Part shown: piece after piece, positions 1 through 59,603 of the stretch | Layout of the letters: each line of letters opens with the position of its first letter | Position numbering within the stretch: the stretch's first letter is position 1 | NCBI GenBank assembly: GCA_964016885.1 | Contig: OZ024743.1 | Span: 303,738,001 to 303,802,000 of the forward strand | From: Eledone cirrhosa | Lineage: Eukaryota | DNA: 64,000 nt | Direction of reading: 5' to 3' | The notes under the pieces: model-generated | What the model saw: the letters and a program-made list of their open reading frames with translations, nothing else | What the model was told of the DNA's origin: nothing | The model's database searches: none | Made by a program: the position numbers and the translations under genes

Positions 1-329
1 AATATATTTTTTTCATACTCACACATATCAGTATAATCACACATACATGTGCGTATATATATAAATATACATATAACCACGAACACACAAACACACACAC
101 TCCCCCACTCACATTTATATATGTGGATATAAAATCATAAGCAAATAGAAATTAAGTCACTCACATAAACACACTGGTACACACATTTCAAGATCAAGAT
201 ACAGAAATTAGGTGGGAGGGGGGGGGAGGGGTCAGTATTAGACTGTCAGACCAGACAACCTTAATATAAATGTATCTATAAATTATGAAAAATAAAAAAA
301 TAAAAACAATAAAGTATAATACATATAAT

Positions 330-517
330 ATAATGTACGTACGCATACAGATATACATACACATACATACATGTACGCGCACATAGAGATATCTATACAT
401 ACATACATACACACATACCTATACTGTCATACACACACATACATTTACACGAACATACACATACACATATAAAAAGATATAAATACGGACACACACACGC
501 GCAACACATACATACAT

Positions 518-564
<47 letters not shown>

Positions 565-675
565 TATACACACACACGTAGACTCATATATATATATACA
601 TACACATACATACATTTATACACAAACATATATATCCCACACTCATACCACCATAAAAACACATACAAACATCCA

Positions 676-726
<51 letters not shown>

Positions 727-822
727 ACATACACACACGTACACACATATGTATATATACATACATATATACACACATACACATATATATATATCCACAC
801 ACACACATAAAATACAGACATG

Positions 823-857
<35 letters not shown>

Positions 858-951
858 CATTACTCTTATATATACACATAGTATATATACATACACAATC
901 TCACTTATACACATATACACATAAGTTATATTACAATAATAATAAAGAATA

Positions 952-982
<31 letters not shown>

Positions 983-1131
983 CATATATATACACACATA
1001 TACACATATACATACACACACATACACATACATACATACATACACATACATACATACACCTAAATATAAACATATATAAATACACACATACGAATAAAGA
1101 CATATATTCACACATAGACACCTATATACAC

Positions 1132-1180
<49 letters not shown>

Positions 1181-1195
1181 TACACATACATACAC

Positions 1196-1233
<38 letters not shown>

Positions 1234-1262
1234 GCACACACATACAGACACACATACACACT

Positions 1263-1297
<35 letters not shown>

Positions 1298-1800
1298 GTG
1301 TATGTGAGTGTGCGCCAATACATATATATATATATACACACACACATACAAACACACACAAACTCATACATATGCATACGCACACACACACACACATATA
1401 CCACATAGATACGAAAATAAACATATAAATAGAGAGACATACAAATATATACAGCATAATATAATTATATGCATACATATGCATACGCACACACACACAC
1501 ACATATACCACATAGATACGAAAATAAACATATAAATAGAGAGACATACAAATATATACAGAACCCATATACACGTACATACAAACACGCATATACATAT
1601 ATATATATATATACACACATATATATTCCTATATACAAGCATACACATACACACACATATATACATATACATACACATATACATATCACACATTCACATA
1701 CACGTACATATATAATACATATATATACATACATATACATATATATGTATGTACAATCATATATACACACTCAATCTTACATTCATATTTACATGCTCAT
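330..1800. repeat. Compound (CA)n/(TA)n low-complexity tract, probably within the long 3' region of the minus-strand PLE
   Basis: Continuous CA/TA dinucleotide repeats; the overlapping YI/CV-rich ORFs are artefacts. Confidence 0.9.
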
Positions 1801-2200
1801 ATATGTATTTTTATATTTAGAAATAAATACCAAAAAAACTATATAGATACCCATCTACACATATATTCATACATATACACTTACAAAAACAGATGATAAT
1901 AGTATGGGGGAAAGGGGGGGTTTGGAGAAGGGGATCAAAGTAAATATATGTTTCAAGAAACATATAATATTTTCCATATCTTAATTCAATGTATGTTCCT
2001 AACATATTTTCAGTGCTAGGAAATACGAAATCTATGCATCACAAAATAAAAAAGTATACTATTAATCATATGTCAACTAAACCAAAGATAGTCAACATAA
2101 TGATTTCCAAGGTGTAAATTAGTTAGGTTTATAATATTTGAGGCAGAATTATGAAGTCAAACAGTAGTAGATTATTAATTACATTATAACTAAATTAAAG

Positions 2201-2549
2201 TTAATAACGTTATGGTATCAATATTAGGAGATGAATAGGGAAAAGAAACCCAAATAAAAATAAAAATAAAATAAAGTATTACATCGGTAGTAGCATATAA
2301 ATTATATGTTAACTAAGTTAAAAATTATATATTTATTTCAATAGTATATGTTAATTAGTATATGTTAATTAGTATATGTTAATAACGTTATGGTATCAAT
2401 ATTAGGAGATGAATAGGGAAAAGAAACCCAAATAAAAATAAAAATAAAATAAAGTATTACATCGGTAGTAGCATATAAATTATATGTTAACTAAGTTAAA
2501 AATTATATATTTATTTCAATAGTATATGTTAATTAGTATATGTTAATTA
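2201..2549. repeat. Tandem duplication, ~178 bp period
   Basis: ttaataacgttatggtatcaatattaggagatg starts at both 2201 and 2379. Confidence 0.85.
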
Positions 2550-3314
2550 GGTATACAATACATAAAGCAGATATTGTATTTCATCAATAGCATAATATAA
2601 TTATATGCAAATAAAAATCAAAATTAATACGCACACATATACATATACATACACATACACATACCTATACATATACATACACATATATATATATATATAT
2701 ATACATATATATACACATACATACATATATAGTCACATAAATATACATACAGATACACGTAGAACACACACATATACATATACATATAGATATACATATC
2801 TTTTTCAAAAAACTTGCACAGAATATATTAACTAGGTATATATCCAAAAACACCTCCCATTCTATGATTACATGACATTCTGCAATTTGTCTGTACAATG
2901 ATACTAATTTTAAGCAAATTAAAGTTAAAATTAAAGTTTTAGGTTGATTAAAGCTAAAACCAAATAATAAATATATTTCCAAAATGTATATTAATTAGGT
3001 CAATAATACTAAAAATTCTTTCTCCGTCATAGGATACATGATATTATTTTGTTATATTTTATCTGTAAAAGAATTATAATAAAAAAAAAAAAATTATAAT
3101 AAAAGGTTAAACTAAATTAAAAAATTATAATAAAAGGTTAAAATAAGTTAAAATTAATCTATAAATTAAATTACTGAATATATATTAGTAATATTTAAAG
3201 GTTTTTCAAAATTAATGATTACATAATATTTTCTCATCTGTAATAAAATATTAATTAAATTAAATTTATAGGTTAACTAACATTTAAATTAAATTAAATT
3301 CTAGAATAATGTTA

Positions 3315-4050
3315 TTAATTAGGTTTATAATATTTAAATGTTTTTTTTAGTTTATGATTACACGATATAATTAATTCCTGTCTTTTATTTAATAAGATAT
3401 CCCTAGACTTCATTATTTCAAATAGTTCTTGGGAACATAATCTACATTCCTTTCTATTATTTTGATAAGGGGTGGCTCTTTTGAGCACACTCCAGGTCAA
3501 ATCATATTTTATATTTTTATTTTTATAACTATTGATTTTTTCTGCTAGAGATGTTGTATTAGCCAGTGCGGCATTTTTAAAGCTATGTTTGTGGGTATTA
3601 TATCTTGTCTTAAAATTGTTAGAGGTAGCTCCTATATATGAGCAAATAGAATCTTTAGTTTTAACATTACATTTATAGACTATGTTGTTAACAAGACAAT
3701 TCCCTTTTAATGGGCAGTTTGTTTTGTTTCTACAGTTACATCCTTTCGTTAATTCTGTATTTGAGGAGATATTATTGTTAATTTGATGTACTGGTGGTAT
3801 ACTTATAGTTTTCTTACATTTATATGCATTATATGCACTTATATTTTGTTTTATGTTATTTGTTGTAGAATATGAGAATTTAACTGTAGACCTATTTAAG
3901 ATTTGATGGTATTTGTGGTTTGGCGGGAAGTTTTTCTCAAGGATATAAAAAAATTTTTTAGCAATATTATCCTTAACTTGTAAATTAAAAGGAGCATTAT
4001 ACCAAGTAACTCGTCTATTACGGTTTCTATGTTGTTTATTATTTTTATTA
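3315..4050 (-). pseudogene. Penelope-like element (PLE-1), 5'-truncated, GIY-YIG endonuclease region
   Basis: Minus-strand translation RRVTWYNAPF ... CNCRNKTNCPLKGNCL ... SYIGATSNNFKTRYNTHKHSF ... CRLCSQE ... LNKRQELIISCNH; disrupted upstream. Confidence 0.9.
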
Positions 4051-4210
4051 TTTTTATATGTTGTATCATGATTTTTACTAGGAGGAATAATGTTAATGAT
4101 CTCACCACAACTATTTTTAGTTATATTTGTAGATTTAGGTGTTTTATCTTTTTTATTAGGAGTTTTATTATTAATATTTATTATAGTCTTATGATGAGTA
4201 GTTTTTTGAG

Positions 4211-4740
4211 GGTTATATGTATATTTATATATATACGCACATGTATGTGTGATTATACTGATATGTGTGAGTATGAAAAAAATATATTTATATGCTTGAC
4301 TCCATAAGTATCATTGCGTATCTTATCAGCGCATTAAGCTTACAGAGATATTAACCTTGAAATTTTTTATTTGCATCCATCTTTTTAGTATGCACATACA
4401 GATTATACACACATTATTGTAAAATGTGTGTGGGGTTTTACATGTATATACACACACCAAACTGCTTTTTAACCCTTTGTGTTTTCATTGGTCAATTTTG
4501 AACTGATATTTTGAATTGTTGTTATTATCAATAAATATACTTCATTATTTCTGAAGACGGCGTATATATGAGTTAGGTATGTATATTTAATCTTGATAAT
4601 TTGTATAATTTTGTATAATTTTGTACATAGATCTGTTAAATATGCATACCAATTATAACACATATATGCCCTAGAAACGATCGTTAAATAGTGAACTTTT
4701 TTTGTTTAATATAAGGAATTGTTTGTTCATTATTTGTTTA

Positions 4741-4745
<5 letters not shown>
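4211..4745 (+). mobile_element. Inverted pseudo-LTR of PLE-1
   Basis: 4211-4288 is the exact reverse complement of 1-78; carries an HHR; ends at a (TA)n tract. Confidence 0.75.
4541..4695 (+). ncRNA. Type I hammerhead ribozyme with very long stem II
   Basis: Stem I ttcattattt/aaatagtgaa; CTGAAGA at 4551; stem II base ggcgtatat/atatatgcc enclosing ~95 nt; GAAA; palindromic stem III ACGATCGT; UU cleavage site. Confidence 0.7.
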
Positions 4746-4787
<42 letters not shown>

Positions 4788-5357: not shown

Positions 5358-5448
<91 letters not shown>

Positions 5449-5478
5449 AGATCAAAAGATGGTTAAAAGAGTTCCATG

Positions 5479-5549
5479 TATTTTATTATGCGCATTTCAA
5501 AAACAAATATCATCATGCAATAATATTTGTGTTTTCATCAAATTAAATA
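5479..5549 (-). ncRNA. Hammerhead motif in PLE-2 3' pLTR, core mutated (TTGATGA)
   Basis: Reverse-complement homologue of 9842-9912 with C3->U. Confidence 0.65.
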
Positions 5550-6491
5550 GGAAGACATGATATGAAGGTTAAAAAACACTTGTGAATAGTGCAGTTTTAA
5601 ATCAACATATAAAAAGTAGTTTTAGATTGATGTGTGATATTGGGAAAAACAATGGTGAGGGGGGTGGGGGTGGAAAGGATGAAAAAGAGGTGGAGATCAG
5701 AGTAAAAAGTGGAAGGGGAGTAGTATAATGAGGAAGGATGTGATAGGAGGAGAGATGGGTGATAGGGAGAGAGAGGTAGCTTTTATAACTGAGAAAAATA
5801 TATTGTTTTACATAGAGAGGTTAAAAAACCGTTGGAAGATAATGTATACATTAAAAGAATTTGAAAATTAACGAAGAGAAAAAAATAATGTAAAGTTAAG
5901 TTTTTTATATTGAAGGGTTTAATAATATGTGCGATGAAAAGAAAATGTTAATACGTATTAAAAATAATATTTAAGGGTTTAATAATATGCGCGATGGAAA
6001 AAATATTTTTAATATGTATTAAGAATAATATTTAAGGGTTTAATATGTGCGATGGAAAGAAAATGTTGATATGTATTATTGAAAAAACACAAGTAATGTA
6101 AGTAAGGATATATTGTGAGATGAGCATGAGTAAGTTAGATGAAAGGGAAAAAATAATGAATTGAGGATGAATAATCTAACGTCAAAAAAAATGTTTATGT
6201 TTACGAAGGTTTTTTCAAGGTGATATACAGTAAGAATATATTGTATTGTATAATAATTGTTTCAATGTTAGGCACAGTGAGAAAATGTACAGATTAGGGG
6301 TTAGAAATTAAAAGAATAAGAAAAGAAAAGGAAAAGGAAGAAAGGGAAGTGATAAATAGGAGTGATATAGAATGAGTAACAAGTATTATATAATGTATAA
6401 TAAATCACTTTGAAATAAGGTAGAAAGATGGCTATATTTTTAAAGATGTGCCTTTGAGAAAAGGTTTCTAAATTGATAAAGTTATTGGATA

Positions 6492-8840
6492 TTAGCTGTA
6501 TACTTTATGCAATGTTCTGTGGAATTTATGCAAGCAGAGAGAAAACAAGTCAGTGCGTCTATCTATTATAGAATCTAAATTATAAATAATGGTAAAGTTT
6601 TCATTTAGACCGAGATTACACGTCTTGGATAGAGAACAGTTCAAGTATAACGAAGCAGAAGAAAACTTTTTCCAAGATATGTTATATTTAATATTTTTGT
6701 CTTTCAAGGACCATATGAGTTCTGAGAGAGCCGTGTTGGTTCTTTTAAGTTGGTATTTAAAAGACTAATGATGATTATAAAGACGAGCTTTAAAGGAGGT
6801 GGAAGTGGAGCCAGAATAGGTGAAGGAATTGGTGTCAATTATAACTTTACATTCGTAGATTAAGTTTTTATCAAGACAATGGTTGTTGAGAGGACATTTA
6901 TTTTTAACAGGGCAATTGCAATTGCGATTAGAGAGATTATTAACGGGTGACCTAGTGTTATCTATAGAAGGAATTGGATTGGAGAAGTTATTTGTGATAG
7001 GAATAATAGTTTCTTGATTTAGAATGGGATTAAGAACATTTAGCGAAGTTGTGTTTGACGTTGTATTTGGGTTTGCAGAAATTAGCCTAGAGTTTACAAT
7101 GACGTCGGGAGTACTATTACTATTATTATGATATTCAGTGTTGGAAGGAAGAGATTTAGTATTTAGTATTTTATTGTTGTGTTTAGAGATAATGTTGGAA
7201 ATGTTGGAGGATGTCGAATAGGAACATTTTATAGTGTGTTTGTTAAATATGTTACTATATATATGAAAGGGAGGGAAGCATTTATTTAAGGCACTAAAGA
7301 ATAATTTAGGAATATTATTATTAATAGAGATGGAGAAAGGAGCATTATACCAGATTATGTTTTTGTCTCTAGGTCTTTTATTAAAGTTATTGGAATGATC
7401 ATGATTTATTATTCTACTGTAAGATCTTCTAGAATTGTGTTTCTTTACTATATTTGATTTTATCAGGATAGCCGGCTTTAGAAAGCGCGTTATTATAGTA
7501 ATTGGCGTTAGCATCAAATATATTTTTATTAGAAGATAGGTTAGATATTCTTTTTCCAATATTACTAACTATAGCATTCTTAATATTAGTGGGGTGTTTA
7601 GATCTAAAATTAACATAATTTAGGTTCTCATTGTTTTTATGGTAAGGGTAGTGTCAAGATTAAGAGATACATCCAAGAAATTAGCTAGTTTGATGCTGTT
7701 ATCAAATTCAATTTTTAAGTTATGTTGGTTAAAGAGGTTACGTATATTGTTCTTAATAATATTAAGGTTAACTATGTTGCAATTTAAGATATTAAAGAGT
7801 CCATTGTCACGATAAATTCCACCGCGAAATTGAGGAATTTTCCGACTCAAAGAGTTCAAAATAAAGATACCAATTAAATCTGTTAATTGGGATGAATCGG
7901 ATGCTCCCATTGTGATGTCGAAGTTGGTAGAAGTATCAGCTCTGGTCCAATATTAATTGTTGAATTCTAGGATGGTTTTACGTGCGGTGAGAATGATGTG
8001 AAGTTCATCTGTGGTGATGTCAGAATATTTAAATGCGAAATATTTAAATGTTGAGAAGTGAAGGCGAAATAGAAGTTTAGTAGCTGGCAATATCAAATTG
8101 AACACATTTTAGTTTGTTTTTATTATTCAATTTGTTGAACCAGCCAATCACTTCAGAAGTACCAAACCATAAATTTAAGTTCAAAGATGGCTTTACTAAC
8201 AATCCTCAGATCTCATTTAGAGGGGGCGATTTATCTAACAGGTAGTTCAGTACGAAAATTGTTTTTGTGATCCTTGAGATTTATCCTCGGAGTTCTTGGG
8301 AGGAATGGTTCGGTCTTTTTTCCGATGCCAAGTTTTGACATAATCTCAGAGGCTTCAAAGTTTATGGATTCTAAATTATCATGGTTGGTTTTACGATATT
8401 TTTTCATAAGTTCCTTTAGGATAAGGTTGTTATAGTTATCCTTGGAAATACCATATAAATTATTGGTTTTGTCAGAGTGGACTAAAACTTTTTTTGAGGA
8501 ATTTAGGTTTGAAATTGTGTTCCTGAGATTTACAAGGTGCTCTTGTCCTTTGTAAGGGTATCTCTTGAATTTAAGATGTTTTATAATTTTTGTTAACTCT
8601 TCGTCGAATTGCACTAGATTTTTGTTGGAAGGAGGATTTCTTCTAGAATTAAATAGATGATCGAGGAAGTTATGTTCTTTGATATAGAGGTTCCCTTTTA
8701 GGCGCTGGTCATAGAAATAAGCTATCCATCTAAGTCTTCTTACAAAGGAGTCAGTTTTTTTCGATTAGAAGTTTAGTGAATTCAGATTTACCAGGTATAG
8801 GAATGTCTTTAGTTGAATTGGTTATATTGTAATAATCCAT
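6492..8840 (-). pseudogene. PLE-2 polyprotein (reverse transcriptase + GIY-YIG), frameshifted
   Basis: MDYYNITNSTKDIPIP start; SDKTNNLY; LKDHKNNF; FDITMGASDS; GIYRDNGL (YRDD-like); FLDVSLNL; IIWYNAPF; CNCPVKNKCPL; YSGSTSTSFKARLYNH. Confidence 0.92.
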
Positions 8841-9841
8841 GTTGTAGAAGAAAAAAAGGTAAAGAACCATCAAAAGGTATCCAATATGAGAGTTAGCGCT
8901 CAACCGTTAAGGAGCAAATTAATGTAGGTGAGCTTTATTGTAGTACAATAAAGCAATGCAGTTATCGGATAAGAAGAACTCTACAATTTGTAGGACTGGA
9001 GTATACATCTTTAAAAATATACCCATCTTTCTACCTTATTTCAAAGTTATGTATTATACATTATATAATACTTGTTACTCATTCTATATCACTCCTATTT
9101 ATCACTTCCTTTTCTTCCTTTTCCTTTTCTTTTCTTTTTCTTTTAATTTCTAACCGCTAATCTGTACCTTTTCTCACTGTGCCTAACATTGAAACAATTA
9201 TAACACAATACAATAAATTCTTACTTTATATCACCTTGAAAAAATCCTTCGTAAACATCAACATTTTTTTTTTTTTACGTTAGATTATTCATCCTCAATT
9301 CATTATTATTTCCCTTTCATCTAACTTACTCATGCACATCTCACAATATATCCTTACTTACATTACTTGTGTTTTTTTAATAATACATATCAACATTTTC
9401 TTTCCATCGCACATATTATTAAACCCTTAAATATTATTCTTAATACATATTAACATTTTCTTTTCATCGTACATATTATTAAACCCTTCAATATACAAAC
9501 CTTAACTTTACGTTATTTTTTCTGTTCGTTAATTTTGAAATTCTTTTAATTTATACATTATCTTCCAACGGTTTTTCAACCTCTCTATGTAAAACAATAT
9601 AGTTTTCTCAGTTATAAAAGCTATCTCTCTCTCTCTCTATCACCCATCTCTCCTCCTATCTCATCCTTCCTCATTATACTACTCCCCCTCCACTTGTTAC
9701 TCTGATCTCCTCCTCTTTTTCATTCCCCCCCTCACAAATTTGTTTACCCGATATCACACGTCAATCTAAAACTACTTTTCATATGTTGATTTAAAACTGC
9801 ACTATTCACAAGCGTTTTTTAACCTTCATATCATGTCTTCC

Positions 9842-9912
9842 TATTTCATCTGATGAAAACACAAATATTATTGCATGATGATATTTGTTTTTGAAATGCG
9901 CATAATAAAATA
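9842..9912 (+). ncRNA. Minimal type I hammerhead ribozyme in the inverted pLTR of PLE-2
   Basis: tatttcat-CTGATGA(9850)-stem II acaaatatta/tgatatttgt-GAAA(9893)-palindrome ATGCGCAT-A-ataaaata. Confidence 0.8.
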
Positions 9913-10068
9913 CATGGAACTCTTTTAACCATATTTTGATCTTATATATTATGTATACCCCAGTCCTACAACCTGTAGAGTGCTTCCTATCCGATATCTG
10001 CATTGCTTTATTGTACTACAATAAAACTCACCTCCTACATATATATATAAATATATATACGTTAAGTA

Positions 10069-12842: not shown

Positions 12843-13167
12843 GTATATTTTAGAAAATATCATATATGTTCACTAGCTCTGACAGTGTGCAGGTGAACAA
12901 TGATTAAGCGTAATACCCAGACACATTAGTGTCAGCAGATGTGTTTACATGCCAACACGGGAGCAAGAATTATGGGCTCATTCTACTGACAGCTTTAACA
13001 ATGAGGATTGTTTGCATTATTACAAACGAATCGAATATTATTTTTCATATTCCAAAATCTCAGATTATATTTATATGTATATATATATATAAGCTGAAAA
13101 AAAATGAAAACGAAATTTCATTTCTCACTCTTAGTATGGCACTTACTTAAATCTGGCAGATGGGTAA

Positions 13168-13210
13168 ACGGTGCTGATGATAGCTAACAAGCTTGAAACT
13201 AGTACATCGT
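13168..13210 (+). ncRNA. Minimal type I hammerhead ribozyme, intact core
   Basis: acggtg-CTGATGA-tagctaacaagctt-GAAA-CTAG-TA-catcgt. Confidence 0.85.
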
Positions 13211-13399
13211 TCCTGTGTCAGTGTTGAACAAAAAGGTGACGTGGTTGCCTTAACACCGTATGGCATAAATTCAGGCTGTTCAGTTTGTTGACAAACGAAC
13301 AAAGCGGCGTTATAATAAGCGTCCGCTAAACTGATGCGTGCATATATGTATGTGTACCTGTATGTATATATATATATTCTCGATAAAAGCACTGGATAT

Positions 13400-13442
13400 G
13401 TAGTCCTGAAGATTTCTAATAAGAATGAAACGCGTAGATTAC
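13400..13442 (+). ncRNA. Minimal type I hammerhead ribozyme, copy 1
   Basis: gtagtc-CTGAAGA-tttctaataagaat-GAAA-CGCG-TA-gattac; outer extension ctcgataaaagca/tgcttttatcgag. Confidence 0.85.
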
Positions 13443-13709
13443 TTCCCTTGCTTTTATCGAGAATCTAATTGTAATACGTGACGTATTCTATTCTATAGCG
13501 ATTAGGTCTTCAAAATGTTTATTATAAACATACAGAATATTTTCGAATATTCTATGTCTATATTCACATATATATCGCTATTTCAGAGCATTTATTCCAA
13601 TTTCTAATTTCTGCCGGACCGGCAACCGCTCTTTCAAACCAGTTCCTGTACACAGCTAAGTATTCTATAAGTCTCTAGCTGTGTCATTCTCGATAAAAGC
13701 ACTGGATAT

Positions 13710-13752
13710 GTAGTCCTGAAGATTTCTAATAAGAATGAAACGCGTAGATTAC
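13710..13752 (+). ncRNA. Minimal type I hammerhead ribozyme, copy 2
   Basis: Same sequence as 13400-13442, offset +310. Confidence 0.85.
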
Positions 13753-14019
13753 TTCCCTTGCTTTTATCGAGAATCTAATTGTAATACGTGACGTATTCTA
13801 TTCTATAGCGATTAGGTCTTCAAAATGTTTATTATAAACATACAGAATATTTTCGAATATTCTATGTCTATATTCACATATATATCGCTATTTCAGAGCA
13901 TTTATTCCAATTTCTAATTTCTGCCGGACCGGCAACCGCTCTTTCAAACCAGTTCCTGTACACAGCTAAGTATTCTATAAGTCTCTAGCTGTGTCATTCT
14001 CGATAAAAGCACTGGATAT

Positions 14020-14062
14020 GTAGTCCTGAAGATTTCTAATAAGAATGAAACGCGTAGATTAC
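14020..14062 (+). ncRNA. Minimal type I hammerhead ribozyme, copy 3
   Basis: Same sequence as 13400-13442, offset +620. Confidence 0.85.
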
Positions 14063-14215
14063 TTCCCTTGCTTTTATCGAGAATCTAATTGTAATACGTG
14101 ACGTATTCTATTCTATAGCGATTAGGTCTTCAAAATGTTTATTATAAACATACAGAATATTTTCGAATATTCTATGTCTATATTCACATATATATCGCTA
14201 TTTCAGAGCATTTAT

Positions 14216-14252
<37 letters not shown>

Positions 14253-14487
14253 TGCTACTATACGTCTGTATACATGTATGTATGTACGTATACATACATA
14301 CTTCAATTTAAGTAAGTGCCATAATAAGAGTGAGAAATGAAATTTCGTTTTCATTTTTTTCAACTTATCGTTTTCGGTATGCCTGACCGATTTAACTCAC
14401 TCAATATGCAAATTAGGCTGCTCAGCCGTTAATTTTCATAAGGAAAGTATATACTTTCGAACGTTCAACTATCTGGCAGATGGTTAA

Positions 14488-14530
14488 ACGGTGCTTATGA
14501 TAGCTAACAAGCTTGAAACTAGTACATCGT
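14488..14530 (+). ncRNA. Hammerhead motif, core mutated (CTTATGA)
   Basis: Homologue of 13168-13210 with G5->U. Confidence 0.65.
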
Positions 14531-14680
14531 TCCTGTGTCAGTGTTGCACAAAAAGGTGACGTGGTTGCCTTAACACCGTTTGGCATAAATTCAGGCTGTT
14601 CAGTTTGTTGACAAACGAACAAAGCGGCGTTATAATAAGCGTCCGTTAAACTGATGCGTGCATATATGTATGTGTACCTG

Positions 14681-14736
<56 letters not shown>

Positions 14737-14784
14737 TGCTACTGTACGTCTGTATACATATATCTATGTACGTATACATACATA

Positions 14785-14837
<53 letters not shown>

Positions 14838-22893: not shown

Positions 22894-22949
<56 letters not shown>

Positions 22950-23001
22950 AAAATAAAATAAAATAAATAAGTCAAATATTTAAATTTTGGCTTCGTTTAG
23001 T

Positions 23002-23056
23002 ACTGCTATATATATTTCGGTTACAGCCATCTTTGGCTGTGACCGCTTTAGGAAGT
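23002..23056 (-). ncRNA. Hammerhead motif in inverted pLTR of PLE-3, core mutated
   Basis: acttc-CTAAAGC-ggtcacagccaaagatggctgtaacc-GAAA-TATATA-TA-gcagt. Confidence 0.55.
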
Positions 23057-23641
23057 CCGAATTAGTGTGGTAGAGACAAGTACACATGTTGTCGAGGTGT
23101 TTAACTTTGTAAAATACTCTGATATTCCCAGTTCCTGGTTGGGTTATTATTTCACTGAGGAACTGGAATCGTATGAATTTAAACAAACGAATTTCAGCGT
23201 CAAAGGACATCTCCTCCTCTCATTGGTCAGTTGTTAGAACATTCCTCAGTCAAATGTCTATAGAAATTCGTTCTGAGCAAGCGAATCTGTAGTGGCTGTT
23301 CTTGTTATTGTTAGGTACATCTGACCTCTATTCTTATGTTGGTGGAGGTGTTGTTGTTGGAGTCAGCTAAAAAAAATGATAAAGTGGTAGATGGAATAAG
23401 ATGGTAAAGGAACAAAATAAAATAAAATAATCAAATAAAATGTGTGTGTGTGTGTTATACCCATCTCAATGTTATAAAGATCTGTAAGGTCACTCTTCCC
23501 ATTGGTCAGTTTTGAGGGCATTCCTCAGTCAAAAGTCTATAGAAATTATTTCTGGGGTGAAGCTCCCTGTCGTGTTTGTGTTTGCTATTGTTAAGTACAT
23601 CAGACCTCTACCCTTATTTTGGTAGTGTTGTTGGTGTTGTG

Positions 23642-24521
23642 CAACCCACCAAATCTCCAACAACTCACGACGCCTCCAACCCACCCATATAGGAGGAGAC
23701 GCAGAAAAATCACGTGGTACAACCCACCCTACTCTTCGACCCTAAAGAACAGCTTGGCTCGATCATTCTTTGGAGCACTTGATAAATGCTTCCCGAGAAA
23801 CCATAGATAACACAAGATATTCAACAGACACACTGTGAAGCTCTGGCATTCCACCACGAGAAATCTGACCCAACACATAGCTAGCATCAACAGGAGTAGG
23901 CTTAAAAACCACCCCCAACCAGAAGATGGCAATACAAGCACACAGCAGAACCATGTGGAAGGAGAGAAGGGGGGACCCAGTGCCCACCCAATAAATCCAA
24001 ACATACCCGGGGACACCCCACCGTGCCCGGGGGAAGACCACCATGTAACACTTAACGTGAACCCCACTCTAGGCACGCAGGGGTCGACCACCCTCTCCAA
24101 CTGCAGAAACCCCGAATCATGCCTCCTTAGTAATGAATACCTTAAGAAGAACCTAGTATACGGTTGTAGGGTTAAAACCCCCAACTCCGAACACCTCTAC
24201 ATAGGAGCCACATCAACGAGCTTTAAAGACGGTTGGTATAACCATCGCCATTCCTTCAATAAGGAGGCCAAAACGAAAAGTACGGCTCTCTCCGACTTGA
24301 TCTGGAAGCTTAAGCTGGACAGGACCCCGTACTCTCTGGCCTGGTCCATAATCAGGAAAGTACCACCCGATAAAGGGGGATCTGGCATATGCAAACTATG
24401 TCTGAACGAGATCCTCGAGATACTAAGAGGTGGAAGCCGCCTGATAAACCTCAGAACCGACTTCTTCGGGACATGTAGACACCTCAGGGCCGGGACGTTC
24501 GTCAAGATATATGGACAGTAG
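23642..24521 (+). pseudogene. PLE-3 GIY-YIG endonuclease region
   Basis: RRKITWYNPPYS; LDKCFP then stop; NCRNPESC; LYIGATSTSFKDGWYNHRHSF; STALSDLIWKLK; CKLCLNE; CRH. Confidence 0.9.
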
Positions 24522-25844
24522 CAACACAATAAGATGTGAAATCCCCTCCAGCTATGGGGACTTCTCCAGAACATGTAGACACCTCTCGGCCAGACCTCTC
24601 TCAAGCTATATGGTCAGTAACAACACCATAGGTTAGGAACTCCCCTGAAGCCATAGCGACCAACCCAGGATGAGTAGACACCATGACAGCCTAGTGATTG
24701 ATTCTGACACAGCCTTTATAATTTGGCCAACATATTTATAACACACACACATTATATTTTACTTGATTTTTGATTTTTGATTTTTGATTATTCATTTGTT
24801 ATTTGTTTTCTGTTTTCTTCACTTTATCACCTTATATTTAAGTTGAGATTGGTTATAACACGCACACATTTTAGTTCATTATCCTATTTCGTGTTATTCT
24901 TTTACCATCTTGTTCCTCATACCAATTTATCCAACATATTTCTGATCTTGAGAATGGTTATAGCACACACACATTTTATTTTATTTGAATCTTCATTTTT
25001 ATTTTTCACTTTTCATTTTCATTTTCCTTTTTTCATTTTTCATTTTCATTTTTCATTACTTTTTCATTAATTTTTCATTTATTTTCTATGTATTATTTAT
25101 TTTCTGTTTTCTTCATTTTATTGCCTTCTATTTCTTCATATACATGGCATACCCCCCCCCCCCCCAACCACCACCACGGGAGATGGTGGCAGGAGGGATT
25201 AAGAAACACACACACAGATACTTCTAAATGTCAGCAGTAGCAAGACATATGCTGACCACAACACCAACAACACTACCTAAATAAGAGTAGATGTCAGATG
25301 TACTTAACAATAGCAAACGCAAACACTACAGAGACCCCAAACCCAGAAATAATGTCTATAGACGTTTGACTGAGGAATGCTCTCAAAACTGACCAATGGG
25401 AAGAGTGACCTTACAAATCTTTATAACATTGAGATGGGTATAATACACACACACATTTTATTTGATTATTTTATTTTATTTTATTTTGTTCCTTTACCAT
25501 CTTATTCCTTCTACCACTTTATCATTTTTTTTAGCTGACTCCAACAACAACACCACTACCATCATAAGAATAGAGGTCAGATGTACCTAACAATAACAAG
25601 AACAACCACTACAGATTGAATTGCCTCAGAACGAATTTCTATACACTTTTGACTGAGGAATGTTCTAACAACTGACCAATGAGAGGAGAAGAGGCCCTTT
25701 GACGCTGAAATTCGTTTGTTTAAATTCATATGATTCGAGTTCTTCAGTGATATAATAACCCAACTAGGAACTGGGCATATCAGAGTATTGACAAAGTTAA
25801 ACACCTCAACAACATGTGTACTCGTCTCTACCACACTAATTCGG

Positions 25845-25899
25845 ACTGCCTGAAGAGGTCACAGCCAAAGATGGCTGTCACCGAAATATATATAGAGGT
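25845..25899 (+). ncRNA. Type I hammerhead in PLE-3 3' pLTR; core intact, stem I damaged
   Basis: actgc-CTGAAGA-ggtcacagccaaagatggctgtcacc-GAAA-TATATA-TA-gaggt; the sister copy has the pairing gcagt. Confidence 0.7.
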
Positions 25900-26040
25900 A
25901 ATAAACGAAGCCAAATTTTAAACATTTGATTTATTTATTTTATTTTATTTTACATTACTCCGGAGTCACCAAACCAACATGCGCACTTCGCCGAGTGCTC
26001 CACTGCATAATGAGGTGTTGGTATACAACCAACATATACT

Positions 26041-26084
<44 letters not shown>

Positions 26085-26573
26085 TCTTTTAACCAGGAGA
26101 GATGAAAGGGGTCATCAAAATAGAAACGCGAGGCACATAGGAGACCAACAATCAAACAATTGTCGTTAATTTACATCGAGTAAAATGGGGAGATGAAGAA
26201 TAACAGTAATATGCATGAACAAACGAACAACTCAAAAAGGAGAATAAAGGATATCCGAATAAGACACAGCTGCACCAAAGAGAGGATGTGCCGAAAAAAA
26301 AGATTGCCCAATCAGCATCCTTACCTAATATCCGTCATCACTATATTGGTGTCACTGCATATGTGTCTGCCTTAGCGCGTACCTACGCATCATTGGCATT
26401 GCCAAGTGCAACCCTCTTCATATGCGAAATATGTTATTTCTAAAAGAAGGGAAAGTGTGCACTTTCCAAATGTGTGGTGGTTATTACAAACTCAACATGA
26501 ACACCATTGACAGACCCACATGATACGTAACCGCCGAATAATGTGTAAATAAGGTAGTTCTATATAAATATTT

Positions 26574-26760
26574 TTTTCCACTTTTGGCACAAGGCCAGCA
26601 ATTATCGCAGTGTATTACTGATACTTTATTTTATCGACCCCGTAAGGATGAAAGGCAAAGTTAACCACGATGGGATTTGAACTAAGACCATAAAGGGCCG
26701 TAACCCTTTGCTGCAAAGCATGGCGTCACTCCCTCTACCGATACTGCCAATCCACCGCCA
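26574..26760 (-). mobile_element. tRNA-derived SINE, near full length
   Basis: A/B boxes and gcctttcatccttacggggtcgataaaataaagta core (resembles Meta/MESC-type SINE core). Confidence 0.85.
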
Positions 26761-32968: not shown

Positions 32969-33732
32969 ATATAGGCAAGCATGTATATGTCCATGTGTTT
33001 GTTTGTGTACATGTTCATTCTTGTGGAGAGGGTGATAACTTATAAATTGTAGCAGATTAAGTGAATGGCATCTCGTCATGTGAAAATGCATCACAAGTAA
33101 TGGATATTAAACCGGTTATATTCCGTTTATAAAATTAATATTTCTACTCTAAAATTTCCTCTAGAAAATAGATATTTAATTCCTGTGTTGCTGCTGAATG
33201 AGGCAGTTTTCTGAATTGTTCAGTGACTGATATCCTAAATTCACTGAAAACAAAACCTTCCATTGTATCTGATATGAGAAATGTTCGACATAACATTACG
33301 AATTATAACATTACTTGCTAGTAATATTGTGCTTTGAAAGTTTCTCGAATAGTGACATATAATCTGTATGTTTTTCCCAACAGCTAGGAATAGTAACAAT
33401 TTGAAAATATCTGACAGTAATGTATTCAAAACATAGGCATTTTAACCCTCACGAAAATTTAAGTACGATATTAAACACAACATATTTATATGAAATACGC
33501 ATTTTAGATGACATTTATTTAATTATTATCGTGGCGTATACTCATTGTGCAACGGCTTGCTTTTCAAAATGACAACTGATCATAAGACTTACATTCCTCT
33601 GTCATTTTTAAAGTATAGATTATACTTGAGTCAACATTTCCTGTCGCTTCATTTTGAAATGAAGGATTAGCCATTAGACTAGGGAGCAAATATTATATAT
33701 ACACATATTTATATATATACACATATATACAT

Positions 33733-33827
<95 letters not shown>

Positions 33828-34764: not shown

Positions 34765-34792
34765 ATTTATATATATATATATATATATATAT

Positions 34793-34856
34793 GTAAGTAT
34801 GTATGTAAGTGCCATACTAAGAGTGAGAAATGAAATTTCGTTTTCATTTTTTTCAA

Positions 34857-34860
<4 letters not shown>
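34793..34860 (+). repeat. Fragment of the ~430 bp HHR family
   Basis: aagtgccatactaagagtgagaaatgaaatttcgttttcattttt. Confidence 0.7.
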
Positions 34861-34916
<56 letters not shown>

Positions 34917-35055
34917 TGTATATGTATATAAATATGTGTATCTATAATATTTGCACCCTAGTCTAATGGTTAATCCTTCATTATATACATATGTATGCAT
35001 GTGTGTGTGTGTTTGTGTGTTTATGTGTGTATGTGTGTTTGTGTTTGTGTATGTA

Positions 35056-35114
<59 letters not shown>

Positions 35115-35126
<12 letters not shown>

Positions 35127-35608
35127 TTAGTAAAAAGGAAAAATTACAGTAGAAAATGCTAGAGGGATTTTTTTCAGTACAACATCAACACATTTATTTA
35201 CAAGGTAGAAATTCCAGCATTTAATTGTTTCCCGTTTTCCGTTTTATATGCGGTTTCAACAACGGACGTGTATAGTGCAGTTAAATTGCAAATGTATACT
35301 AATTATAATAAAGTTTGTCAAAACTAACTGAGAACGAAAGAAAACTACGGACAAAAATATGTAATTTCTTCTCTATATATGAATGTAGAAACAATCTTTT
35401 TCTCCATTTTAGTAATATTCGAATACATATGCAATTTAACTGCACTATACACTTCCATCGTTTACAAAGCATATAAAGCTGAAACCAGTACACTATTAAA
35501 TGCGAAAATCCTTACTTTGTAAATAAATGTTTTATTGTTTTACTGAAAAAAATCCCGCTAGCTTTTTCTACTGTATTTTTTACCTTTTTACTATTTGTTT
35601 ATATATAT
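35115..35608. repeat. Imperfect fold-back element with ~180 bp arms, in (TA)n
   Basis: tacagtagaaaa..gtgtatagtgcagttaaattgca pairs with tgcaatttaactgcactatacac..ttttctactgta. Confidence 0.75.
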
Positions 35609-35646
35609 CAATTCGTGGGTCACTTCTCTACATACCATATATATAC

Positions 35647-37109: not shown

Positions 37110-37173
37110 TGAAGTAATTCCGTGGGAAAAAGTCCTGGAAAAAAGAGTGCTCTATGTAGGTAACAGAGCTTAT

Positions 37174-37559
<386 letters not shown>

Positions 37560-37747
37560 AAAGTGGGTGGATGAGGGTGTTATTCCACATTGTTTAATGG
37601 TAAATCTACTGCCTGTAAGTGAGGCCAGGGTGCGGTGTTGAGAGCATCAGGTGTTATAGTGGTTATTCAGTTCTTGGGGTCCATCTGTAGAAAGATTGTT
37701 GTAGTCGATGGCCGGAATTGTTGAGAGTTCCGGCTCTACTATTTATT

Positions 37748-38300
37748 AGTTCCTGGGGTGTTTGCACTATATAAAACAGTTCCATTAGGCAGTGTTCAGT
37801 TTTTTCTGAAATTATATGATGGAGCTCGGTTCATAATTTTCCATTGAGCGGTGTAGCTAATGTTAGAGTCTACTAATTGGGTAATATAATTAGCGATGGA
37901 AGTAGAGTATCTAAGCGCTTGCTATTCCTAAAAGAGTGGAGATGCGCTCGAAATCTATTCTTGAATGCCCCAGAAGTAGCTCCTATTTAAGATTTAACAC
38001 TATTAAACTCGTAACCGTGCATCTATAGATAATATTTCTAGTTAAGCAGTAGCCTCGGAGTGGAGAGTTGACAGGGTTACGACAGTTGCAATGTGTTTTG
38101 TTGTCACCTCTAAGGTGGTGAGGGCTGGTGTTAAACCTATTACTATTATTATCTCCATCACCATACCTGCCATTATTGTGGTTGGCGTTATTATAGATAC
38201 AAACACACGAAGTGGTGCTATCTCCACTTCTTGTGTTATAGCGTCTTCTACAGCGGTTGTAATAGCCGATATAGTTTTTAACCCAACTGCTTGGATAACG
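37748..38300 (-). pseudogene. Penelope-like element (PLE-5), GIY-YIG fragment
   Basis: CNCRNPVNSPLRGYCLTRNIIYRC ... S*IGATSGAFKNRFRAHLHSF ... CKHPRN*. Confidence 0.85.
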
Positions 38301-38303
38301 TTT

Positions 38304-38745
38304 CTATAAGTATCCAGCTTCTATAAGTTACTGTTAGATTCACTCCCTTCTTTCGCCGAAAAGAAGTGACACGGTCAGTACTTTAAAACCGATAGCGTAT
38401 GGTCTATACCATACATACATTCATGTATGCATCGCGCTCTCGGAGCACCAATCCTAATACCTAAATTTTGCTGGACCGGCAATCGCTCTGTATAATCAGC
38501 TCCTGATTATTACTGGAATACTATAAGGATCATCCAGCTTCTATCATTTTCGCTGAAGCAGGGGGAGCGTGGCTCTGATGAGCTTCTCTCCCTTCATTCA
38601 CCGAAAAGAAGTAAGTGTCATAGTTACTTCTTTAAGACCGATAGCGTATGGTCTTCTAAATGTGTTTAATTAAAGATACGGTATATTGCCAAATATACTA
38701 TATATACATTCATGTATACGTTGCTATTTCAGAGCACCAATTCTA
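38304..38745 (+). mobile_element. Diverged relative of the 310 bp HHR repeat, abutting the 5' end of PLE-5 in inverted orientation
   Basis: Shares ggaccggcaa.cgctct, atagcg..tggtcttc, gctatttcagagca; CTGATGAG at 38575 but GAAA/stem III deleted. Confidence 0.65.
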
Positions 38746-38971
38746 TTATATATATATATATATATAAGTATGTACACGTACATACATATATGTATACAGA
38801 TGTACAGTAGTATGTATATATATACATACATGCACACAAATATATATATGTACGTATGGATTTAACGAACATTTATTATAATGTTTGGTTTGTTTGTAAA
38901 CAAACATCACGAATTAACACGTACAATGTTTAGCAACTATCGTTGCCCTTTTGTTCAACACTGACAAAGGA

Positions 38972-39014
38972 ACGATGTACTAGTTTCAAGCTTATTAGCT
39001 CTCGTCAGCACCGT
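38972..39014 (-). ncRNA. Minimal type I hammerhead ribozyme, intact core
   Basis: acggtg-CTGACGA-gagctaataagctt-GAAA-CTAG-TA-catcgt. Confidence 0.85.
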
Positions 39015-39406
39015 ATACCTTCCTGCCTGATGATTGGACGTCTGAAAGTATATACTTTCCTTATGCATATTAACGACTGAGTAGCCTAATTTGCATATCG
39101 AGTGAGTTAATCGGCCGGGCGCACCGAAAACGATAAATGGAAAACATTAAACGAAATTTCATTTCTCACTCTTAGTACGGCTCTTGCTTAAATATAAGTA
39201 TGTACACGTACATACATATATGTATACAGACCTACAGTGGTATGTATATATATACATACATGCACACATATATATATAAATATATGTACGTATGGATTTA
39301 CCGAAAATGTATTATAATGTTCAGTTTGTTTGTAAACAAACATCCCGAATTAAGCCGTACAGTGTTTAGAACCATCGTTGCCCTTTTATTCAACACTGAC
39401 AAAGGA

Positions 39407-39449
39407 ACGATATACTAGTTTAAAGCTTATTAGTTATCGTCAGCACCGT
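39407..39449 (-). ncRNA. Hammerhead motif, GAAA mutated to TAAA
   Basis: acggtg-CTGACGA-taactaataagctt-TAAA-CTAG-TA-tatcgt. Confidence 0.65.
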
Positions 39450-39846
39450 ATACCTTCCTGCCTGATTATTGAACGTCTGAAAGTATATACTTTCTTTATG
39501 CATATTAACGCCTGAGTAGCCTAATTTTCATATCGAGTGAGTTAATCGGCCGGGCGCACCGAGTACGATAAATGAAAAAAATGAAACGAAATTTCATTTT
39601 TCACTCTTAGTACGGCTGTTACTTAAATATAAGTATGGACACGTACATATTAATATGTATACATACGTGCAGTAGTATGTATATATACACATACATGCAC
39701 ACATATATATATGTACGTATGGATTTACCGAACATTTATTATAATGTTCGGTTTGTTTGTAAACAAACATCCCGAATTAAGCCGTACCGTGTTTAGCAAA
39801 GGAAAGTATATACTTTCAGACGTTCAATCATCAGCCAGGAAGGTAT

Positions 39847-39889
39847 ACGGTGCTGACGAAAGCTAATAAGCTTGAAACTAGTACATCGT
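39847..39889 (+). ncRNA. Minimal type I hammerhead ribozyme, intact core
   Basis: acggtg-CTGACGA-aagctaataagctt-GAAA-CTAG-TA-catcgt. Confidence 0.85.
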
Positions 39890-40274
39890 TCCTTTGTCAG
39901 CGTTGAACAAAAGGGCAACGATGGTTGCTAAACTCTGTACGGCTTAATTCGGGATGTTTGTTTACAAACAAACCGAACATTATAATAAATGTTCGGTAAA
40001 TCCATACGTACACATATATATGTGTGCATGTATGTATATATATACATACTATTGTACGTCTGTATACATATATGCATGCACGTGTACATATTTATATTTA
40101 AGTAACAGCCGTACTAAGAGTGAGAAATGAAATTTCGTTTAATTTTTTCCATTTATCGTTTTCGTTGCGCATGGCCGATTAACTCACTCGATATGCAAAT
40201 TAGGCTACTCAGCCGTTAATATGCCTAAGGAAAGTATATACTTTCAGACGTTCAATCATCAGCCAGGAACATAT

Positions 40275-40317
40275 ACGGTGCTGACGATAGCTAATCAGCT
40301 TGAAACTAGTACATCGT
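40275..40317 (+). ncRNA. Minimal type I hammerhead ribozyme, intact core
   Basis: acggtg-CTGACGA-tagctaatcagctt-GAAA-CTAG-TA-catcgt. Confidence 0.85.
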
Positions 40318-40645
40318 TCCTTTGTCAGTGTTGAACAAAAGGGTAACGATGGTTGCTAAACACTGTACGGATTCATTCGGGATGTTTGTTTACAAACAAA
40401 CCGAACATTATAATAAATGTTCAGTAAATCCATACGTACATATATATATATATATATGTGCGCATGTATGTATATATATATACATACTACTGTACTCATA
40501 TATGTATGTACGTGTACATACTTATATTTAAGTAACAGCCGTACTAAGAGTGAGAAATGAAATTTCGTTTAATTTTTTCCATTTATATATATATATATAT
40601 AAGAAGAGAATTAGAGTTTAGCTTCAAGCATAGATGTATACAGAT

Positions 40646-49859: not shown

Positions 49860-51330
49860 AGTCCGCTCTATCATAATATACATTCATAATTCCGACTTGA
49901 TTCAGGTTATTGAGTAAAGATAATTTCAGATATCTAGAAGAATACTACATCAAATATATCCCATCTAAGAACGGATCGAAACTCACCCAGTTCGATATAA
50001 CTGACTTTTACTGCTCTATTAGTATATACTTACTAGACAAATACTTCGATTTTGCTCGTAATGTTAGATATATCAGTAAACAAAAGCTTGACCGATTTAC
50101 CACACACGAACCACATTTCTATTCCAAAACGGCATGACTTGGGTTAAATAATCTGGCACACGATTCATTCGACATTTCAATAGGATCAGACGACAGTGCA
50201 GATTACACATGTAGTCGTGTTGGATTACACATGTTCCATACATTTAAACGTAAATTCCCTAACTTCACAATCGGTTTATACCAAAAAGAGTGTCTGTCTG
50301 TTTATCCTTACACGACCGCAGCACGCACGATATGGTCAGATTCCGTAAATACCTGATAGGAACCTTTAGTGCCTTAGGACTCAAAATCGCAGCCAACACG
50401 AGCATCATTAACACAGACTTTCAGGACGTTAATCTGGAACTAACAACAGACACACATAAACCCTATCATAAACCGAATGAGAGGTTAATATATATCAAGG
50501 GAGGACCCTGCAATCCACATACGGCTTTTAGAAATCTAGTACCAAACATTAGCTGCAAAATAATACACATTATAATCCAGTAGAGAAATATTTCAAAAGG
50601 CAGCGCTGCACTATAGCAAGGCCCTCCGAATTAGTGGACTCAACTACTAATCAAATATATATCTAATTGACACCCGCCTAGAAATAAAAAAAACAACAGC
50701 AGAAAAATTACTTGTTTCGTGCCTCGTTTCTCGCAAAATATAAAGACTTATCTAGTTAAGAAACTCTTAGACCTTAGTGATAAGCACTTTACCCCACATC
50801 ATAAATAAAATAAAATCGTCAATTTCCATGCCATCAATGAGATAAAAAATGATGGCAAAAACAAATAGATGATGATCTGCGATGCTTTACAGAATGAAAG
50901 AACACTGTCCATTACAACTAAACTGTATCGTAAGCCCACGAGGTTAAGATAAAACACACAAGCGCAAACAACTGTGAAAATTATGAAGGTAAGATCCAGG
51001 ACCGATTTGAGGAAAGTTTCTAATTGCACGTCTACTCATTTAGGCATCCCAACATGAATACCACCACACCGCTAGTGAAATGACAATTTTAAGAAAGGTG
51101 ATTATCGCATGGAATGTCCAGGCCATAACAAAAATAAAAAACAAAAAATGAGGAAAGGAGGTATGCCGCTCGGCATTAACGAGAAATATAGGAATTTGAA
51201 ATATTTAAACTCACGGGAAAAGACCCTATCTTACAAGAATGAGGTCTTTAGACATTGTTTGCATCGTAGGGTTCACATTTTATCTAAGTGGAAGCGCTTC
51301 TCCAGATCTGCTAATTCCTCCATGACACTA
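49860..51330 (+). pseudogene. Degenerate Penelope-like element (PLE-4): RT with partly deleted EN
   Basis: LTQFDITDFYCSIS; FDISIGSDDSA; TDFQDVNLEL..HKPYHKPNERLIYI; RKITCFVPRFSQNIKT; KNEVFRHCLHRR. Confidence 0.8.
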
Positions 51331-57899: not shown

Positions 57900-58895
57900 A
57901 ATTTCTCACTCTTAGTACGGCTGATACTTAAATATAAGTATGTATATGTATACATATATGTATACAGACGTACAGTAGTATGTATATACATACATACATG
58001 CACATATATATATATGTACGTGTGGGTTTACCGAACATTTATTTTAATGTTCGGTTTGTTTGTAAACAAACAACCCAAATTAAGCCGTACAGTATTCGGC
58101 AACCATCGTTTCCCTTTGTTCAACACTGACAAAGGAACGATGAACTAGTTTCTAGCTTATTAGCTTTCATCCACATCGTATACCTTCCTGTCAATCGATT
58201 GAACGTTTGAAAGTTTATACTTTCCTTATGCATATTAATGGCTGAGCAGCCTAATGTGCATATCGAGTGAGTTAGTCGGCCGGGCGTACCGAAAACGATA
58301 AATGGAAAAATGAAATTACATTTCTCACAATTTATTTACAAACAAACCGAACGTTATAATAAATGTTCGGTAAAACCATACGTGCATATATATATATATA
58401 TATGTGCATGTGTGTATGTATATAAATATTACTGTACGTCTGTATACATATATGTATGTACATATACATACTTATATTTAAGTATCAGCCGTACTAAGAG
58501 TGAGCATACAATTTCATTTTTCCATGTATCGTTTTCGGTACGCCCGGCCGACTAACTTATTCGATATGCAAATTAGGCTGCTTAGCCGTTAACATGCATA
58601 AGGACAGTATATACTTTCAAACGTTCAATCGACTTACAGGAATGTATACGGTGCTGATGACAGCTAATAAGCTAGAAACTAGATCATCGTTCCTTTGTCA
58701 GTGTTGAACAAAAGGGCAACGATGGTTGTCGAACACTGTACGGGTTAATTCGGGCTGTTTGTTTAGAAACAAATCGAACATTATAATAAGTGTTCTGTAA
58801 ACCCATACGTACATATATATATATGTGTGCATGTATGTATGTATAGACATACTACTGTACGTCTCTATACATATAGGTATGTACGTATACATACT

Positions 58896-58897
<2 letters not shown>
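57900..58897. mobile_element. ~430 bp HHR family, array 3: minus-strand unit then ~1.3 plus-strand units, head-to-head
   Basis: Orientation switch near 58330; HHR relics at 58137-58179 (minus, core TGGATGA) and 58648-58690 (plus, CTGATGA..GAAA-CTAG-AT, U16.1 lost). Confidence 0.85.

Positions 58898-58972
<75 letters not shown>

Positions 58973-59599: not shown

Positions 59600-59603
<4 letters not shown>

Follow-up and report, generated by a model that had tools for sequence, protein, structure and literature searches.

Three tandem arrays of a non-coding repeat of about 430 bp in the window (the whole 64-kb stretch of DNA that was analysed) are each composed of a minus-strand arm joined head-to-head to a plus-strand arm. 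The arrays carry a hammerhead motif, have fixed outer ends and (TA)n flanks, and the two arms of a pair have a common origin; the same anatomy is present in adjacent PLEs. Each array is likely to be a single insertion of a non-autonomous type I hammerhead retrozyme, inserted in trans by the RT/GIY-YIG endonuclease of a (TA)n-targeting PLE. Such a PLE would probably belong to the Hydra clade.

The 430-bp unit and its head-to-head arrays

The window is AT-rich animal DNA, rich in (TA)n runs and element remnants. The repeat unit is 428-435 bp long, non-coding and arranged in tandem, with 1-2.4 copies per arm, and as a type I hammerhead tandem repeat it fits a non-LTR retrozyme. Position 0 of the unit was set at the first base past the hammerhead cleavage triplet (39884 in the window), with the hammerhead strand as sense; E1 (~213) and E2 (~270) are the unit positions at which arrays end. 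The features of the arrays are as follows.

13091..13152, minus strand: array 1 left arm, tail only, unit position 212 to ~270, E2 end in (TA)n
13151..14790, plus strand: array 1 right arm, diverged subfamily, position ~381 to 213, E1 end in (TA)n
38759..39799, minus strand: array 2 left arm, 2.4 units, position 41 to 213, E1 end without tail at (TA)n 38745-38766
38966..39018, minus strand: array 2 left-arm hammerhead, intact core
39798..39800: array 2 head-to-head junction, arms overlapping by 1 nt, in-register arms separated by 125 unpaired nt
39799..40586, plus strand: array 2 right arm, 1.8 units, position 343 to 272, E2 end with tail at (TA)n 40584-40601
39840..39896, plus strand: array 2 hammerhead, type I, intact core, short palindromic helix III, predicted cleavage after 39883
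40271..40323, plus strand: array 2 second hammerhead, intact core, predicted cleavage after 40311
40528..40586, plus strand: tail of array 2, spanning E1 to E2 (~57 nt), confined to a single outer end
57900..58328, minus strand: array 3 left arm, ~1 unit, position 236 to 245, outer end neither E1 nor E2 and off (TA)n, hammerhead broken
58331..58903, plus strand: array 3 right arm, position 73 to 213, E1 end in (TA)n, hammerhead broken

The hammerhead motif was found in all eight unit copies, with an intact core in four of them. It comprises a helix I of six pairs, a helix II of four to five pairs, and a short, palindromic helix III. Across the eight copies 90.8% of helix cells are paired, compared with 28-45% when the partners are slid, and two-sided covariation is absent. 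A relaxed hammerhead scan gave 13 hits in the window, 12 of them inside elements described here, versus 0-1 in 10 shuffles. At gathering score Rfam returned no hit in the window; a weak HH9 match below this score (E 0.048) coincides with the left-arm hammerhead of array 2 (38966..39018). The unit also contains a TA-rich hairpin segment, and miRNA-like Rfam hits obtained at loose thresholds were rejected because they fall on it. The predicted fold of the monomer beats 100 of 100 shuffles (z -5.0), partly through this hairpin. A further feature of non-LTR retrozymes was found in the right arm of array 2 (39853, 40281) and not in arrays 1 and 3.

The family is abundant in RAD data, in which one unit accounts for 72,971 of 12.47 million records (0.59%) in sample X8 and for 68,264 of 12.79 million (0.53%) in X9. 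It was also detected in organism B, and runs X5-X7 gave small word shares only. Among the 15 listed of 119 read joints, the head-to-tail joint is best supported (6), another 6 are of other kinds and 3 are opposite-strand. No PLE protein match was found inside the arrays, nor the RT and GIY-YIG ORF of an autonomous PLE. Two metagenome pattern scans gave 0 matches.

As the first-pass annotation had reported, a minus part is joined to a plus part in all three arrays. The joints, at 13152, 39799 and 58329, are all 5'-to-5' and fall at differing points of the unit (212 and ~381, 41 and 343, and 236 and 73, respectively). The strand switch occurs once per array, however, and not repeatedly as had been stated, and the minus arm of array 1 measures only about 60 nt. 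Junction microhomology, which the same annotation had proposed to tabulate for all genomic copies, was scored for the three window arrays: 2 nt are shared in array 1, 1 nt is shared in array 2, and 2 nt are added in array 3. None of the three junctions contains a (TA)n remnant. In this sample of three arrays from one 64-kb window, an inverted, 5'-truncated, head-to-head copy of the kind seen in PLE-type insertions is present in 3/3 arrays, and in 0/1 loci of a second retrozyme family with a 310-bp unit.

Fixed outer ends, one-sided tails and neighbouring PLEs

Five of the six outer ends of the arrays lie at E1 or E2 and abut (TA)n; edges of such runs make up about 1% of window positions. In arrays 1 and 2, one end is E1 and the other E2. 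Array 3 has an E1 end on the right only; its left end, at position 245 and 31 nt from a TA run, fits neither. The two fixed ends are ~57 nt apart, and the intervening 57 nt constitute a one-sided tail, as in PLEs. The complete tail between two fixed 3' ends is present in two of three arrays, the left end of array 3 being atypical. This feature of the arrays was absent from the first-pass annotation. Among the 24 loose ends listed, both ends recur outside the window: 40156 continues into (AT)n in 61 X1 contigs, and the E1 site does so in 5364 X8 and 5992 X9 reads. Target-site duplications are unreadable within (TA)n. E1 also coincides with the end of a TA-rich segment belonging to the unit itself; breakage might be favoured at this point, which counts against the PLE reading.

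The following tiny locus raises the count of such ends to seven of eight.

34792..34860: fourth locus, between two (TA)n runs, plus-strand tail to E2 preceded by ~14 nt resembling an inverted E1 end

Its reading as an inverted E1 end with an E2 tail is tentative, and slippage is the alternative. An inverted duplication (33658-33781 / 34859-34982) of 52 nt of unique DNA plus TA-rich sequence, with copies 1.08 kb apart, adjoins this fragment.

A candidate third terminus at 40134-40136 (about 30,000 X8 reads) was rejected as a probable product of library cutting or ligation, because an AATT site precedes it and its flanks are mixed. Read ends at 39949, 40131 and 40198-40201 likewise follow AATT sites, and the joint 39955/40226 may be an artefact of the same kind. 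Interpretation of the arrays as MITE/TIR elements was also rejected, as they have unlike ends and a tandemly repeated interior.

Four neighbouring elements are relevant for comparison.

1..4747, minus strand: PLE-1, 5'-truncated, inverted hammerhead-bearing arm 4211-4747
5434..10036, minus strand: PLE-2, broken, Hydra-like, inverted arm 9005-10036, ~79-nt tail, hammerheads in both arms, both ends at (TA)n
22949..26042, plus strand: PLE-3, 5'-truncated, with (TA)n at both ends, an inverted arm (22949-23641) and a right-end tail of ~90 nt
37111..37448: head-to-head hammerhead fold-back lacking an ORF, with (TA)n on either side and a left-end tail of 60 nt

The inverted arms noted earlier in PLE-1, PLE-2 and PLE-3 were found again. 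In PLE-1 the arm from 4211 matches window positions 1-78 at 78/78, so its partner arm runs off the window start and is cut by the window edge. Matching arm stretches are 5434-6449 / 9005-9957 in PLE-2, and the arms of PLE-3 are 22949-23641 / 25257-25952. PLE-2, PLE-3 and the 37.1-kb fold-back share the anatomy of the arrays; their tails measure ~79, 90 and 60 nt, and (TA)n adjoins every end. The distance from the cleavage site differs: E1 is ~213 nt past it in the arrays, versus ~37-67 nt in the PLE-type elements of the window.

PLEs of the Hydra clade target (TA)n (Craig 2021, PMC8557442). Judged by its sequence motifs, PLE-2 appears close to this clade and is a candidate helper type, sharing with the clade, as described in the available text of Craig 2021, DKT, CxCX5C, a C-terminal nuclease region, hammerheads and (TA)n ends. 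It differs in that the window copies are broken and RWI replaces the published RWK, and its placement is a motif match, not a tree; the absence of CCHH in the PLE neighbours was judged by eye. The full-length relatives P0002 and P0003 carry RWK, DKT and CxCX5C. Pfam did not recognise the window PLE ORFs or P0001-P0003, and revealed no host gene among the 62 of 132 open frames scanned.

Several further observations concern elements of this type. The hammerhead-like motif of PLE-1 (4541-4690) combines a helix I of 10 pairs with a helix II of unusual length, a hairpin of ~110 nt. At 8926-9008, the main arm of PLE-2, which is one full unit, starts within 2 nt of the E1 boundary, hence the tail is present twice. 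Small inverted elements at 5.2, 35.1 and 59.6 kb have the same build, with a sense that lacks an independent fix. Those at 5166-5356 and 59603-59800 (with a relative at 4935-5099) are 86%-identical fold-backs with a ~80-nt tail and centres at the same position, and the hammerhead scan found none in them. The pair at 35121-35637 has 181-nt arms of 80% identity between (TA)n runs and a ~29-nt one-sided tail, again with no hammerhead found by the scan. A diverged PLE-like RT remnant at 49922-50835 has no inverted arm.

Origin of the inverted arms

The possibility that the two arms represent subfamilies of different age, raised in the first-pass annotation as a sign of independent insertions, was addressed on the four long arms of arrays 2 and 3 over 289 scorable columns (35 ties left out, TA-rich segment excluded). 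Fourteen columns group the arms by locus and none by side or crosswise, thus each arm pair derives from one insertion. Arm divergence is 6.8% in array 2 and 10.0% in array 3, compared with 11.3-14.3% between arrays, and overlaps that of PLE-type arms (4.4%, 7.1% and 6.0%). The left arm of array 1 is 98.2% like its own right arm and about 91% like array 2 (BLAST, 54-55 nt). Position 377 is A in all four array-2 units that cover it, and T in 99.9% of X1 depth and 94% of X8 reads. In 262 columns covered by at least four units, the array-2 units show 36 singletons and 1 shared change; they were therefore near-identical at insertion, as from one template. A tree of unit pieces is weak, with an array 2 clade at 72% and array 3 not recovered because its pieces barely overlap.

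Two opposite insertions placed side by side in (TA)n hot spots and later homogenised would produce a similar picture, and the abundance of the family in RAD records (0.59% and 0.53%) as well as the nesting of the 310-bp repeat in array 1 would favour such a history. It is nonetheless very improbable. No junction contains (TA)n, the arms pair by locus 14:0:0, and a rare allele is shared. Furthermore, all seven loci in which sense is fixed by an ORF or a hammerhead (the three arrays, PLE-1 to PLE-3 and the 37.1-kb element) are head-to-head, which under random polarity would have a chance of 1 in 128. Separate insertions followed by gene conversion fit poorly, and we regard independent insertion as largely refuted.

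Fold-back chimeras in the assembly are scarcely credible as a source of the arrays. The 310-bp copies are 100% identical, and the 39799 joint is absent among the 15 of 119 joints listed (reads compared with the monomer), two points in favour of an artefact. Yet the array arms are 7-10% diverged, and divergence of 6.8% and 10.0% means that arrays 2 and 3 are not fold-back read chimeras. Raw reads from two other samples (73 and 90 of them) contain opposite-strand joints of the array-1 type. The opposite-strand joints 40100/40272 and 40109/40272 were found in both RAD samples and fit an array-1-type joint read from the AATT at 13114, polarity not given; the third listed opposite-strand joint may be a library chimera.

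L1 twin priming also yields head-to-head pieces. This mechanism in another retroelement such as a LINE, or inverted duplication of a satellite at the DNA level through template switching at TA cruciforms, is quite improbable for the arrays, despite the TA-rich hairpin in the unit and the LINE-type and Helitron remnants in the window. Replication errors do not predict two fixed ends that recur in other copies. Neither poly(A) nor another kind of 3' tail was observed at the array ends, and the anatomy matches that of the adjacent PLEs.

Fixed ends, a one-sided tail, (TA)n and the matching neighbour PLEs make PLE-driven insertion likely. The earlier proposal that PLE machinery inserts the arrays is in this respect supported, and on stronger grounds than those given there, by the fixed 3' ends, the one-sided tail at (TA)n and the pairing of arms by locus. 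For its second part, that the machinery is the same as that of PLE-1 to PLE-3, no sequence support was found: compared with eight window targets including three pLTR regions, the unit has no similarity above shuffles (2-74 of 100 shuffles reach the score), and no parent PLE or helper emerged from this comparison. Further points against the PLE reading are the left end of array 3, which fits no rule, the lack of an inverted arm in the 310-bp retrozyme, and tails longer than published (57-90 nt here vs 30-40 bp).

According to the available text of Frangieh 2024 (PMC11167929), a purified PLE protein nicks AT-rich DNA on both strands in vitro and extends each of them, and its synthesis begins at two neighbouring positions inside the RNA which delimit the genomic tail. 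For the arrays we infer a PLE as the enzyme, double-ended priming and a (circular) RNA template. The PLE enzyme would bind retrozyme RNA and cut both strands of a (TA)n run. One cDNA would then be primed per target strand, from the E1 and E2 RNA start sites ~57 nt apart, and the two 5'-truncated cDNAs would be joined head-to-head at points of little or no homology. Arms longer than the unit would result if the template RNA were circular or multimeric; the units within an arm, up to 2.4 in number, are near-identical, which points to a circle or a uniform multimer. In array 1 (left arm), the 34.8-kb piece and the main arm of PLE-2, arms start at or within a few bases of E1, three cases noticed post hoc. 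Such starts could reflect cDNA collision with the other primer, or a full turn of the circle.

PLE-driven insertion with a single priming event is an unlikely variant, in which one strand self-primes or folds back to form the second arm, and resolution then trims one arm at the AT-rich E1. The available texts contain proposals that head-to-head junctions of PLEs arise by self-priming (PMC3846280) and that the PLE tail arises by endonuclease resolution (PMC8557442). The small elements at 5.2, 37.1 and 59.6 kb fold back almost perfectly on themselves around spacers of 3-7 nt, and once trimming is allowed, arm lengths in tandem repeats are compatible with fold-back. The array junctions, on the other hand, are not palindromic, with 125 and 192 nt between in-register arms. 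In the absence of trimming, neither arm contains the other in array 2 and PLE-2, which excludes simple untrimmed fold-back for array 2. A change at position 379 is common to both right-arm units and absent from both left-arm units, although this is one site only, and both tail boundaries are RT start sites in vitro in the part of PMC11167929 available.

Priming of both strands thus remains the preferred reading for the arrays. Its extension to a general rule, in which a dimeric PLE enzyme inserts animal retrozymes by priming both strands from two fixed sites on small circular RNAs and copying round the circle, is speculative and at present doubtful. If it were true, the tail would be a cis signal carried by a 430-nt RNA without detected helper homology.

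Ribozyme function, known retrozymes and other elements of the window

According to the first-pass annotation, divergent arrays would be self-cleaving in either direction of transcription and could form long dsRNA. From the motifs, we infer cleavage activity in both directions for array 2, which has an intact core on each strand, and not for array 1 (one intact core, plus strand only) or array 3 (0/2). The core of the other left-arm hammerhead of array 2, near 39410-39440, is broken. For an RNA that reads through array 2 on the plus strand, folding predicts 683 cross-arm pairs, with both sense ribozymes locked in duplex, thus dsRNA formation and cleavage would compete. On this folding model, long dsRNA from array 2 is possible. 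The inversion is most simply explained as a by-product of insertion, not a selected design.

Mobilisation of retrozymes by PLEs has already been proposed (PMC7229834), and Li et al. 2026 (10.64898/2026.07.22.740005) base their case for the link on co-occurrence and on similarity to pLTRs. In the parts of these two papers available to us, metazoan non-LTR retrozymes are characterized, as are the arrays, by a non-coding tandem unit of 150-450 bp, low GC, high copy number, co-occurring PLEs, and a single type I hammerhead in each unit, whose helix III is short and palindromic. The published arrays are head-to-tail, whereas those studied here are head-to-head pairs with two fixed ends. In Xenopus, 24 of 57 families matched TEs, mostly PLEs, according to the same literature; in contrast, the 430-bp unit is without pLTR homology in the window.

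The main texts of both papers do not contain the word “orientation”, and that of Li et al. also lacks “tail” and has “inverted” only in a reference title. The 12 passages of PMC7229834 that were covered, of 13, mention no inverted arrays. In the literature available, we found no description of animal retrozyme arrays with inverted arms or tails, and supplements and subscription papers may hold one. The PLE-retrozyme link is thus already proposed, and we did not find its integration signature described for retrozymes in these sources.

With PLE insertions, as described in the available texts of PMC3846280, PMC8557442 and PMC11167929, the arrays share a head-to-head inverted truncated arm, a tail at one end, an AT-rich or (TA)n target, and a hammerhead upstream of the 3' end. 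They differ from them in having no ORF and in a tail of ~57 nt compared with 30-40. Hammerhead pairs of PLEs lie on opposite strands 100-700 bp apart (PMC4209133, in part). Non-autonomous Chlamys PLEs (MRC1) are likewise PLE-mobilised and form multicopy head-to-tail insertions; they differ in being algal, in a 3' end that generally resembles that of the autonomous partner, and in that most are without canonical hammerheads (Craig 2021, available text).

An integration scar is more direct evidence than shared hammerheads, co-occurrence or pLTR similarity, and it can be counted in any assembly. The scar described here supports the existing proposal that PLEs move retrozymes. In addition, a high-copy 430-nt substrate with two mapped start sites offers natural junctions and a minimal RNA for testing how PLEs form arms and tails.

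The 310-bp retrozyme family sits in the TA segment of array 1 and interrupts its right arm.

13376..14221, plus strand: nested 310-bp retrozyme family, 2.7 copies, 100% identical, three intact-looking hammerheads, no inverted arm

These copies are either very young or collapsed in the assembly. A PLE nuclease remnant on the minus strand and a relative of the family on the plus strand meet head-to-head at 37675-38745, and the 310-bp retrozyme may derive from the pLTR of this PLE. A left-hand pLTR copy for it was not found, and the remnant at 37.7-38.3 kb is ambiguous. A decayed relative at 14944-15200, a minus piece followed by a plus piece, is possibly a head-to-head remnant.

Other repeats in the window include a zf-RVT fragment (53870-54316) and a GC-rich element at 54886-56825 which, from its motifs, we take to be a non-LTR retroelement remnant. 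Broken PIF1 helicase frames at 19869-21509 are probably a Helitron remnant. Copies of a short interspersed repeat, 82-92% alike, were found at 17407-18242, 22810-22876 and 26565-26759.
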